The notes under the pieces are model-generated. The model had not been told where the DNA came from and did not search any database. It saw only the letters and a program-made list of their open reading frames with translations. A DNA stretch of 63,899 nt, counting the filler, from Rhabdomonas costata (Eukaryota): NCBI GenBank assembly GCA_019059605.1. It is 57 parts of 57 records of this genome, joined end to end, with 100 filler letters (N's around TTAATTAATTAA, not from the genome) between each part and the next. Parts side by side here need not be neighbours in the genome. Positions count along the whole stretch, not along the records: positions 5,619 to 6,641 come from JAHMHO010032920.1; 56 more parts are not named here. One strand, given 5' to 3'. Positions 5,619-6,641 of the stretch are shown piece after piece. Position 1 is the first letter of the stretch. Each line of letters begins with the position of its first letter. The position numbers and the translations under genes are program-made.

Positions 5619-6641
5619 TTTGTTGGTGCGGACCCCAGCCACCCCGCTCACAGGGTTCTTGGGGCACTGGCCCCAATGATAGGAGCGATTGAGCAGTACC
5701 TGGGAGCCGGGCTGGTACCCAAGGTGGATCCGGAGCAGGACGTGCTGTTTCGTGGGTCGAACTACGAGGTGCCTCTGGAGGGGAGCCATGGAAAGCTGCG
5801 GTGGGAGTGCTTCTCCAGTGTCTCGCTGAGCGCCCACGCTGCCCGAAGCTTCTTGAAACCCGGGGGGACCCTCTTCGTGGTGCGGTCCGCAATTGCCGTC
5901 GCGATCTTCTTCCTCAGCGCGTACATGGAGGAGCTGGAGTGCCTGGTGCCGCCGACGGAGTTCCTGCTGCGGGACGCGCTGCCGGTGTCGATCCTGCGGA
6001 TGATGGGGGTGCAGGGCTCGGTGATGCTTCTGGAGGATCCTAAGGTGAGATTGGATCTGCCGATCTCTCTGCACGATCGCTGAGCGATCTTTGTAATTTG
6101 TGGCGTTTGGTTTCAATCAAGGGCAATGGCTTCGTTTTTATTCCGCCCTAGAAATGCCGTCTCCCTCAGAATCACGTGTCTTACATTGCTTTTTATGTGC
6201 TCAACCTTTAGCTTGAAGGACATGGTTTCTTTTTTGTCTGGAATTAGGCGGTGGCGATGGCGACCTCCCAGCCTGGGCTGACCTCGAAGCTTTTCCTACA
6301 ACGCAAGCTGGATTTCCTATTCGAGCCTTTGCGGCAGAAGTACGTCGCAGTGCAGGCCACCCCCGACCGGGAGCACCGCGAACCTCCTTACGAATTGCTG
6401 GAGAAGCTCTGTTGCAACGCCTTGTGCGAGCCTTCTTGTTCAAAGGGAAAGATTTCAGTGGACCTTGTGCTCTCCTCCGGGGGGATGGGTAAAACAAGCA
6501 CAGCACTTCTGATGCAACATGAGCTTCTGGAGGGGGAGAAGGGCGTGTGTGGGACGTTTGTGTCACTGCCGATGATGGGGGAAGGTCTTGCCGATGCCAG
6601 GGCTCTGGAGAAGGTTCTGCAGGCATCGATGGGGGTTGGGA
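5619..6641 (+). CDS. ADP-ribosyltransferase (R-S-E clade) domain fused to a STAND/NACHT-like P-loop NTPase, partial (exons 5619-6044, 6248-6641)
   Basis: Exon 1: VLFRG, FSSVS, GTLFVV, FLSAYMEELECLVPP. Phase-0 intron AAG|GTGAGA..TTAG|GCG (6045-6247). Exon 2: LVLSSGGMGKTST Walker A, then FVSLP strand. Both ends truncated by the contig. Confidence 0.8.

Follow-up and report, generated by a model that had tools for sequence, protein, structure and literature searches.

An ADP-ribosyltransferase exon joined to a NACHT-like NTPase exon in Rhabdomonas costata: a candidate NLR-like gene family

The window analysed here is a 63,899-base stretch of DNA from Rhabdomonas costata (assembly GCA_019059605.1), and the element under study is a gene fragment that fills one of its contigs (JAHMHO010032920.1, positions 5619-6641). 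On sequence grounds, the two exons of this fragment encode the predicted catalytic part of an R-S-ExE ADP-ribosyltransferase (ART) and the first third of a predicted nucleoside triphosphatase (NTPase), joined by a conventional phase-0 GT-AG intron (Table 1). Judging from its relatives, the gene of which the contig contains a fragment belongs to a multi-copy, lineage-specific family in a euglenid-type protist, and the predicted architecture of that family is well supported and firm. The best overall explanation, which we hold to be probable, is that this lineage-specific family encodes NLR-like switches composed of an ART, a NACHT-like NTPase and WD40 repeats, in which the ART would be an ADP-ribosylating effector. 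A sequence-only reading of this contig had proposed an ART spliced to a STAND/NACHT-like NTPase. All of the sequence features that it listed (the R-S-E motifs, the intron at 6045-6247 and the Walker A motif) were found where it had placed them and its interpretation is supported; membership of the NACHT family is probable but below threshold, and the function is one that we infer.

The two exons, their relatives and the splice junction

The translation of exon 1, open from the contig start over 141 codons, reads ...DVLFRGSNYEV...WECFSSVSLS...FFLSAYMEELECLVPP...VMLLEDPK. It matched the Pfam ART family PF01129 with 32.1 bits (E value 9.4e-8, cut-off 22.3) over exon residues 39-113. A phmmer search of the Protein Data Bank (PDB) with exon 1 returned rat ecto-ART2.2 (1gxy, E value 0.0095), in which the R, S-x-S and ExE motifs align residue for residue; the YRG, FTSSS and QEE blocks of rat ART2.2 are taken here to be its catalytic motifs. 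Moreover, these motifs are retained throughout the family. DVL[FY]RG is kept in 13 of the 13 family sequences that cover the motif, whilst C[FY]SS[AV]S and ExE are each kept in 14 of 14, both glutamates being invariant columns in two family alignments. The relative P0006 also lies above the Pfam ART cut-off (24.9 bits versus 22.3), and its ART region scores 0.96 to PF01129/PF03496 clusters in the language-model features of the ESM Atlas. The N-terminal helical part of the domain is cut off by the contig; in relatives it contains AQFxxLFLYSxEI and DQLYTLLTSAQR. The ART profile also gave a weak match over the ExE region to the PAAR repeat-containing protein 6drh_B (E value 1.4), and an NCBIfam scan returned no match for the window exons. 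By Pfam, by the rat ART2.2 alignment and by language-model features, exon 1 is a predicted R-S-ExE ART, as had been proposed from the sequence. The same reading had described the product as an NAD-consuming effector. An ART effector is retained, but its activity is better worded as ADP-ribose-transferring, probably onto arginine.

Six relatives of exon 1 (P0003-P0008) were found among 1604 candidates (proteins of 248-2000 amino acids), with E values of 4e-62 to 1e-49 and identities of 66-77%. Three of these (P0006-P0008) come from EukProt, where they are labelled eukprot:RCo..., and the other three from ENA contigs of 1.6-3.3 kb. The RCo prefix presumably denotes the heterotrophic euglenid Rhabdomonas costata, and the EukProt RCo protein set is taken as transcript-derived. 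Passages of the genome/transcriptome paper for this species describe its proteins as predicted from the transcriptome (PMC8219788). When exon 2 was searched by phmmer against 1.84 billion representatives, three relatives were found, including P0008 (E value 2.6e-25) and P0009 (E value 1.3e-19). Together with the Pfam ART match, these values lie far outside what chance would give. By tblastn, identity to the relatives is uneven, at 72-77% over the ART exon and 48-56% (P0006, P0007 and P0008) over the linker and NTPase start encoded by exon 2, the effector being better conserved than the beginning of the switch. With its nearest exon 2 relative just 56% identical, the window copy is a distinct paralogue. 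At least ten distinct exon-1 sequences were counted, namely the window copy, P0004, P0005, P0006, P0007, P0008, P0010 (partial) and a seven-member cluster of at least 90% identity drawn from seven different contigs. Word-index searches, one using P0007 residues 345-960 and one using the NTPase family profile, each yielded just two family members among 8000 scored candidates, and tblastn of P0007 residues 359-1001 against plasmids gave four weak, pentapeptide-only matches (E values 0.1-0.8). No relative outside the family set and no significant bacterial sequence match was found in these library, profile and plasmid searches.

The intron that separates the two exons is bounded by the donor CCTAAG/GTGAGA at 6044/6045 and the acceptor TTTCTTTTTTGTCTGGAATTAG/GCG at 6247/6248. 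Its GC content is 0.438, compared with 0.643 for exon 1 and 0.583 for exon 2, and it contains stops in all three frames; the reading frame of exon 1 enters it for 12 codons before reaching a stop. Among AG acceptors compatible with the frame, the one at position 6248 is the first to be followed by an open downstream frame. In the table-11 list of open reading frames (ORFs) the exons appear as two ORFs, 5676-6083 and 6251-6697. They lie in different genomic frames, and therefore a plain ORF list gives two separate entries, which the sequence-only reading had already remarked upon. Five relatives (P0006, P0007, P0008, P0009 and P0010) are uninterrupted over the junction, with the pattern ...LLEDPK/A...KLFLQRKLxFLFEPLR.... 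Across this point P0006 reads ...LLEDPK MATTPGASQRGLAS KLLLQRKLDFLFQPLR, P0007 reads ...LLEDPK AASQASAQPGVNP KLFLQRKLHFLFEPLR and P0008 reads ...LLDDPE AAHQGTAAQEGLSR KLFLQQKLHFLFEPMR. The spliced window reads ...LLEDPK AVAMATSQPGLTS KLFLQRKLDFLFEPLR, with the same 13-14 residues between the blocks as in the relatives. In addition, the ENA proteins P0003, P0004, P0005, P0012 and P0014 end in EDPKV, followed by a stop or by unrelated residues, at the same donor position. Such ends, in at least five genomic-type relatives, are consistent with a gene caller that read into the GTG... donor at that position. Homology thus backs the predicted 6044/6248 junction from transcript-derived and genomic-type relatives alike, and the in-frame, phase-0 join that had been proposed agrees with these comparisons. 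The ENA-derived P0009 and P0010 run on without a break at the point that an intron occupies in the window copy and in at least five genomic-type relatives; either the intron is absent from some paralogues or those contigs are transcript assemblies.

The NTPase module and the full-length plan of the relatives

Exon 2 is open over 131 codons and runs off the contig, its translation being AVAMATSQPGLTSKLFLQRKLDFLFEPLRQKYV...VDLVLSSGGMGKTSTALL...GTFVSLPMMGEG.... When compared with the Walker A pattern [AG]xxxxGK[ST], the GK[ST] core and GGxGKT are present and the first position is Ser. This substitution had been picked out in the window copy, and it recurs in 6 of 6 family members. The contig ends approximately 20 codons before Walker B, which reads CDSWDEV in 3 of 3 relatives. 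Sensor 1 ([VM]TSRP[ED]A) and a winged-helix motif (F[SA]HLSxQEFF) are likewise found in 3 of 3; the NTPase motifs of P0007 recur in P0011 and in P0009 and P0018 taken as a pair. It had been anticipated that Walker B and any sensor repeats would lie beyond the contig, and the relatives do place Walker B shortly after its end and WD40 repeats later. We take hhhhDGxDE in Walker B, TSRP and FxHxSxQEF to be signatures of NACHT domains.

Exon 2 alone had no family match in Pfam, NCBIfam or the PDB. Searching the PDB with the NTPase family profile returned NLRP1 chains (E values 0.032-0.058) over profile positions 437-494, which hold FSHLSLQEFF. NLRP1 is the sole non-repeat PDB sequence match of this profile with an E value <0.1; pentapeptide matches (E value 6e-7) rank ahead of it. 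The family nSTAND_NTPase5 matched P0010 with 18.9 bits against a cut-off of 34 (E value 0.0014). In the ESM Atlas, the features of P0007 residues 420-960 match bacterial clusters annotated as NACHT, NNH3 and Pentapeptide with a score of 0.93 (201 of 256 in common). The nearest Atlas clusters of the NTPase-pentapeptide region are mostly cyanobacterial, a hint at a bacterial-type chassis. An AlphaFold2 model of P0009 (predicted local distance difference test score, pLDDT, 57.9; predicted template modelling score 0.60) is built of five beta-alpha units, Walker A, Walker B and sensor 1 each falling at the end of a strand, and its modelled fold is of the AAA+/STAND type. Taking the motifs, the architecture, the NLRP1 match and the Atlas features together, we assign the module with good confidence to a divergent, NACHT-like class of STAND NTPase. 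The score against Pfam NACHT is below the cut-off, and the module is therefore called NACHT-like and not filed as a Pfam NACHT member. Thus, of the original STAND/NACHT-like assignment of exon 2, the STAND part is supported by the Walker B, sensor 1 and winged-helix motifs and the WD40 repeats of the relatives and by the AAA+/STAND fold of the model, but the Pfam NACHT score falls short. Single-sequence PDB searches with P0009 and P0018 gave chance matches only, and designer-PPR matches of P0002 in the PDB were rejected as spurious, being built from many sub-threshold pieces. PADLOC returned nothing relevant (a WD40 match on P0007, and Cas3e with an E value of 0.013 on exon 2).

The full-length plan is best seen in P0007 (1317 amino acids), which has, in order, a low-complexity N-terminus, the R-S-ExE ART, a conserved helical linker, the NACHT-like NTPase followed by predicted helical and winged-helix modules, a pentapeptide-repeat stretch and the WD40 repeats. 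Such an order, with the effector at the N-terminus, the NTPase next and the repeats at the C-terminus, is the tripartite plan of STAND proteins. In P0011 the WD40 units number at least 11, about double those of P0007. The mean identity between WD40 repeats of one protein is 54% in P0007 (6 units) and 48% in P0011 (11 units). Fungal HET-E-type NLRs possess near-identical, rapidly reshuffled WD40 repeats, and the family falls well short of this.

Table 1. Predicted features of the contig (window positions) and of the full-length relative P0007 (residues)
Feature	Location	Strand	Basis
Whole assembly contig of ~1 kb, gene fragment open at both ends	5619..6641	+	artificial N/TTAATTAATTAA linkers either side
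Exon 1, catalytic C-terminal two-thirds of R-S-ExE ART domain, 5' end cut by contig end	5619..6044	+	Pfam PF01129, ART2.2 alignment, relatives
Arg codon (R44) of DVLFRG, predicted NAD-binding Arg, strand 1	5751..5753	+	aligned to Arg of YRG in ART2.2
FSSVS, S-x-S motif, strand 2	5811..5825	+	aligned to FTSSS of ART2.2
E-L-E, predicted catalytic ExE motif (strand 5)	5931..5939	+	aligned to Q-E-E of ART2.2
GT-AG spliceosomal intron, 203 nt, phase 0, pyrimidine tract before AG	6045..6247	+	composition, stops, relatives
Exon 2, helical linker (KLFLQRKLDFLFEPLR) and first strand, P-loop, helix and second strand of STAND-type NTPase, 3' end cut	6248..6641	+	relatives
Walker A / P-loop SSGGMGKT, Ser replacing first Gly	6473..6496	+	direct reading; S-x-GG-x-GKT in 6/6 family sequences covering it
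P0007 ART R-S-ExE motifs	residues 257-325
P0007 P-loop SSGGMGKT	residues 445-452
P0007 IVLICDSWDEV (Walker B)	residues 512-522
P0007 VVVTSRPEA (sensor 1)	residues 551-559
P0007 long helical stretch, then TATPVLAAML	residues 685-694
P0007 VSFSHLSLQEFFAAQ, containing FSHLSLQEFF	FSHLSLQEFF at residues 830-839
P0007 short pentapeptide-repeat stretch between NACHT-like module and WD40	from residue ~944 to ~1000		PDB pentapeptide proteins E 6e-7
P0007 seven WD40 repeats (seven-blade propeller)	residues 1003-1300		WD40 E 4e-78

Points against the NLR-like reading and the status of the window copy

Several results weigh against an NLR-like switch with an ADP-ribosylating effector. For the ART, 4 of 6 family members fall under the Pfam cut-off of 22.3 (P0003 at 21.6, P0004 at 21.3, P0012 at 20.9 and P0008 at 17.0 bits), the shallow ART family profile performs less well against the PDB than the single sequence (ART2.2 at an E value of 1.1), and an AlphaFold2 model of the P0003 ART, built from an 8-sequence alignment, has a pLDDT of 45.8 with the catalytic core <50. 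For the NTPase, Ser occupies the first Walker A position in all six members and nucleotide binding is assumed. Pfam NACHT (PF05729) gave only 12.8 bits on P0007 residues 359-1001, against a cut-off of 26.7 (E value 0.11), in a match that covers Walker B to sensor 1 and was obtained for 1 of 4 members scanned. P0009 and P0018 were without a STAND match in the Pfam scan, the P0009 model is mediocre by its pLDDT, and in structure comparisons with it NLRs are tied with ORC/Cdc6 and classical AAA+ proteins (Z 11.1 to 9.5). The closest relatives of the window copy are 77% (exon 1) and 56% (exon 2) identical to it, and no transcript-derived protein exceeds 75% or 56%, respectively. Finally, a putative role in defence or cell death draws only on analogy of architecture and on family expansion.

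The tie between structural scores bears on an alternative in which the P-loop domain is another AAA+-type ATPase, of the ORC/Cdc6 kind, and the protein would then be no NLR-like switch. Foldseek with the P0009 model placed ORC, Cdc6 and RFC on top (E value 1e-5) and NLRP7 at rank 31. VIA-align over 48,161 chains gave ORC3 at Z 11.1 and Cdc6 at Z 10.9, followed by NLRP9 (Z 10.5; root mean square deviation 3.9, 174 aligned), Avs4 (10.3), EfAvs5 (10.0), NLRP2 (9.9), NOD2 (9.8), NLRP3 (9.6) and NRC2 (9.1), and a closer look at the best 1000 Foldseek matches gave the same picture. With scores tied in this way the fold is AAA+/STAND, and structure alone does not separate STAND from other AAA+ proteins. 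The lead of ORC3, Cdc6 and ORC1 in both structure searches, together with the sub-threshold Pfam NACHT score, is what speaks for an ORC/Cdc6-type ATPase. However, seven STAND proteins are within 1 Z of the top structural rows, and identity to NLRs is 13-19% compared with 10% to ORC3. Moreover, the Walker B hhhhDSWDE, TSRP and FSHLSLQEFF match the NACHT signatures named above, NLRP1 stands alone among non-repeat PDB matches of the family profile, the Atlas neighbours are NACHT families, and an N-terminal enzyme with C-terminal repeats is the STAND plan. An ORC/Cdc6-type domain is accordingly considered very unlikely, and a NACHT-like STAND NTPase is preferred.

A further alternative is that the window copy is a dead or unexpressed paralogue, that is, a pseudogene fragment of an otherwise functional family. 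The distance to any transcript-derived protein would fit such a copy, as would the fact that just 272 codons are visible, the rest of the gene lying off the contig. Yet both exons are open throughout (141 and 131 codons), the catalytic and P-loop residues are all intact, the splice signals are canonical, and GC content at third codon positions is high (0.81 in exon 1 and 0.69 in exon 2), as coding sequence should be. With this in mind, a pseudogene seems distinctly improbable, and the fragment is treated here as part of a member of the NLR-like family.

The window as a whole consists of 57 pieces of 1015-1026 bases with N runs around a TTAATTAATTAA linker between them. The pieces are separate contigs that were joined artificially, and hence the neighbours of 5619-6641 carry no genomic context or biological meaning. 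No other family fragment was found within the window, where tblastn with seven family proteins matched just 5622-6047 and 6248-6637. Minus-strand ORFs at 5571-6116 (181 amino acids) and 6201-6626 (141 amino acids) lie opposite both exons; the GC-rich coding sequence has probably given rise to them as a by-product. A long (CA)n microsatellite with a few CG interruptions occurs at 5015-5085, in the unrelated contig that comes before this one (4493-5518).

Relation to known systems and proposed function

The NACHT-WD40 STAND plan is a known one; what differs here is the predicted R-S-ExE ART effector, the pentapeptide insert and the host lineage. The NACHT-WD40 STANDs (fungal HET-E/NWD-type NLRs and animal TEP1/NWD1/NWD2) share the arrangement of effector, NACHT-type NTPase and WD40 propeller. 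Two 2026 preprints describe animal TeTIR/NIR members in which an NAD-using enzyme, a domain of the NADase type, lies directly upstream of NACHT, as an NAD-using enzyme does here (bioRxiv 10.64898/2026.09.21.753143; 10.64898/2026.09.04.749371). The effector of these proteins is TIR-like, HET, HeLo or similar, whereas here it is a predicted R-S-ExE ART, and further differences are the pentapeptide stretch between NTPase and WD40, the host lineage and the sub-threshold Pfam NACHT score. Bacterial NACHT proteins with pentapeptide repeats, mostly cyanobacterial, are the nearest language-model neighbours of the NTPase-pentapeptide region (0.93), and the Avs/bNACHT anti-phage STANDs Avs4 (Z 10.3) and EfAvs5 (Z 10.0) are among the best structural matches to the P0009 model. 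The family is set apart from bacterial STANDs by the lack of a significant sequence match, by its spliceosomal intron and by its euglenid-labelled relatives. The effector itself resembles the R-S-E arginine mono-ADP-ribosyltransferases (PF01129; rat ART2.2, bacterial toxins), with which R, S-x-S and ExE align and whose Pfam cut-off is passed. However, vertebrate ARTs are secreted or glycosylphosphatidylinositol-anchored ecto-enzymes and the toxins are exported, whilst here the ART is embedded within a large multidomain protein of the cytoplasmic type. Plant TIR-NB-ARC-LRR receptors follow the same working logic, in that an NAD+-using enzymatic effector at the N-terminus is followed by a STAND switch and a sensor made of repeats; they have TIR in place of the ART, NB-ARC in place of the NACHT-like module and LRR in place of WD40.

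A survey of fungal NLRs (PMC4986451) uses none of the terms 'ADP-ribos', 'ART' and 'PF01129' in its main text, and 'ADP-ribosyl' is absent from the main text of a 2026 survey of prokaryotic STANDs. The Rhabdomonas costata genome/transcriptome paper (PMC8219788) likewise makes no mention of ADP-ribosyl, NACHT or WD40 in its main text, although its supplementary tables may list such domains. In the passages concerned, two Aravind-lab papers present ARTs as apoptotic or toxin effectors and not as a NACHT fusion. In line with the sequence-only reading, which knew of no characterised example in Euglenozoa, a literature search found no description of an ART-STAND fusion in that group, although supplementary tables may list such architectures.

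A mechanism can be proposed from general knowledge of STAND/NLR proteins and ExE-type ARTs. The WD40/pentapeptide end may keep the NTPase ADP-bound, and thereby off, until a ligand is bound. Nucleotide exchange would lead to oligomerisation, in which the N-terminal ART domains would be gathered and switched on. The active ART would then mono-ADP-ribosylate arginines of cellular or invader proteins, using NAD+; arginine is the probable target in view of the ExE motif, which takes the place of QxE. Cells might in consequence stop growing, die or mount some other defence response.

The same architecture could also serve a non-immune role, as a regulatory or scaffolding STAND ATPase whose ART modifies a cellular partner in normal signalling. 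The family carries no link to infection in this analysis, and its WD40 repeats, at 48-54% alike within one protein, are unlike the near-identical repeats of the HET-E type. Passages of one preprint also describe the roles of the animal NACHT-WD40 proteins TEP1, NWD1 and NWD2 as debated (bioRxiv 10.64898/2026.09.21.753143). Conversely, the family is multi-copy and lineage-specific (three proteins among 1.84 billion for exon 2; at least ten distinct exon-1 sequences), and the effector position is held by an enzymatic R-S-ExE domain, typical of toxins. A toxin-type enzyme in the effector position and a lineage-specific expansion are usual for conflict systems. A non-immune role is regarded as unlikely, and an NLR-like switch with an ART effector remains the favoured explanation. 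It is a more speculative step, taken here only tentatively, to propose that euglenids may possess an expanded set of NLR-like immune or cell-death receptors of their own, with an arginine ART as executioner, that these would be the first STAND receptors armed with an ART to be described in a eukaryote, and that their NACHT, pentapeptide and WD40 chassis may have been inherited or acquired from cyanobacterial-type conflict systems.

Swappable N-terminal effectors on STAND/NLR receptors are an immune logic common to bacteria, fungi, plants and animals, and in Discoba, the deep branch that includes euglenids and trypanosomes, STAND/NLR receptors and immunity are nearly unexplored. A multi-copy ART/NACHT-like/WD40 family would bring protein arginine ADP-ribosylation into the NLR repertoire of eukaryotes as a new effector chemistry and, in free-living euglenids, would open a concrete way into the study of innate immunity or regulated cell death.

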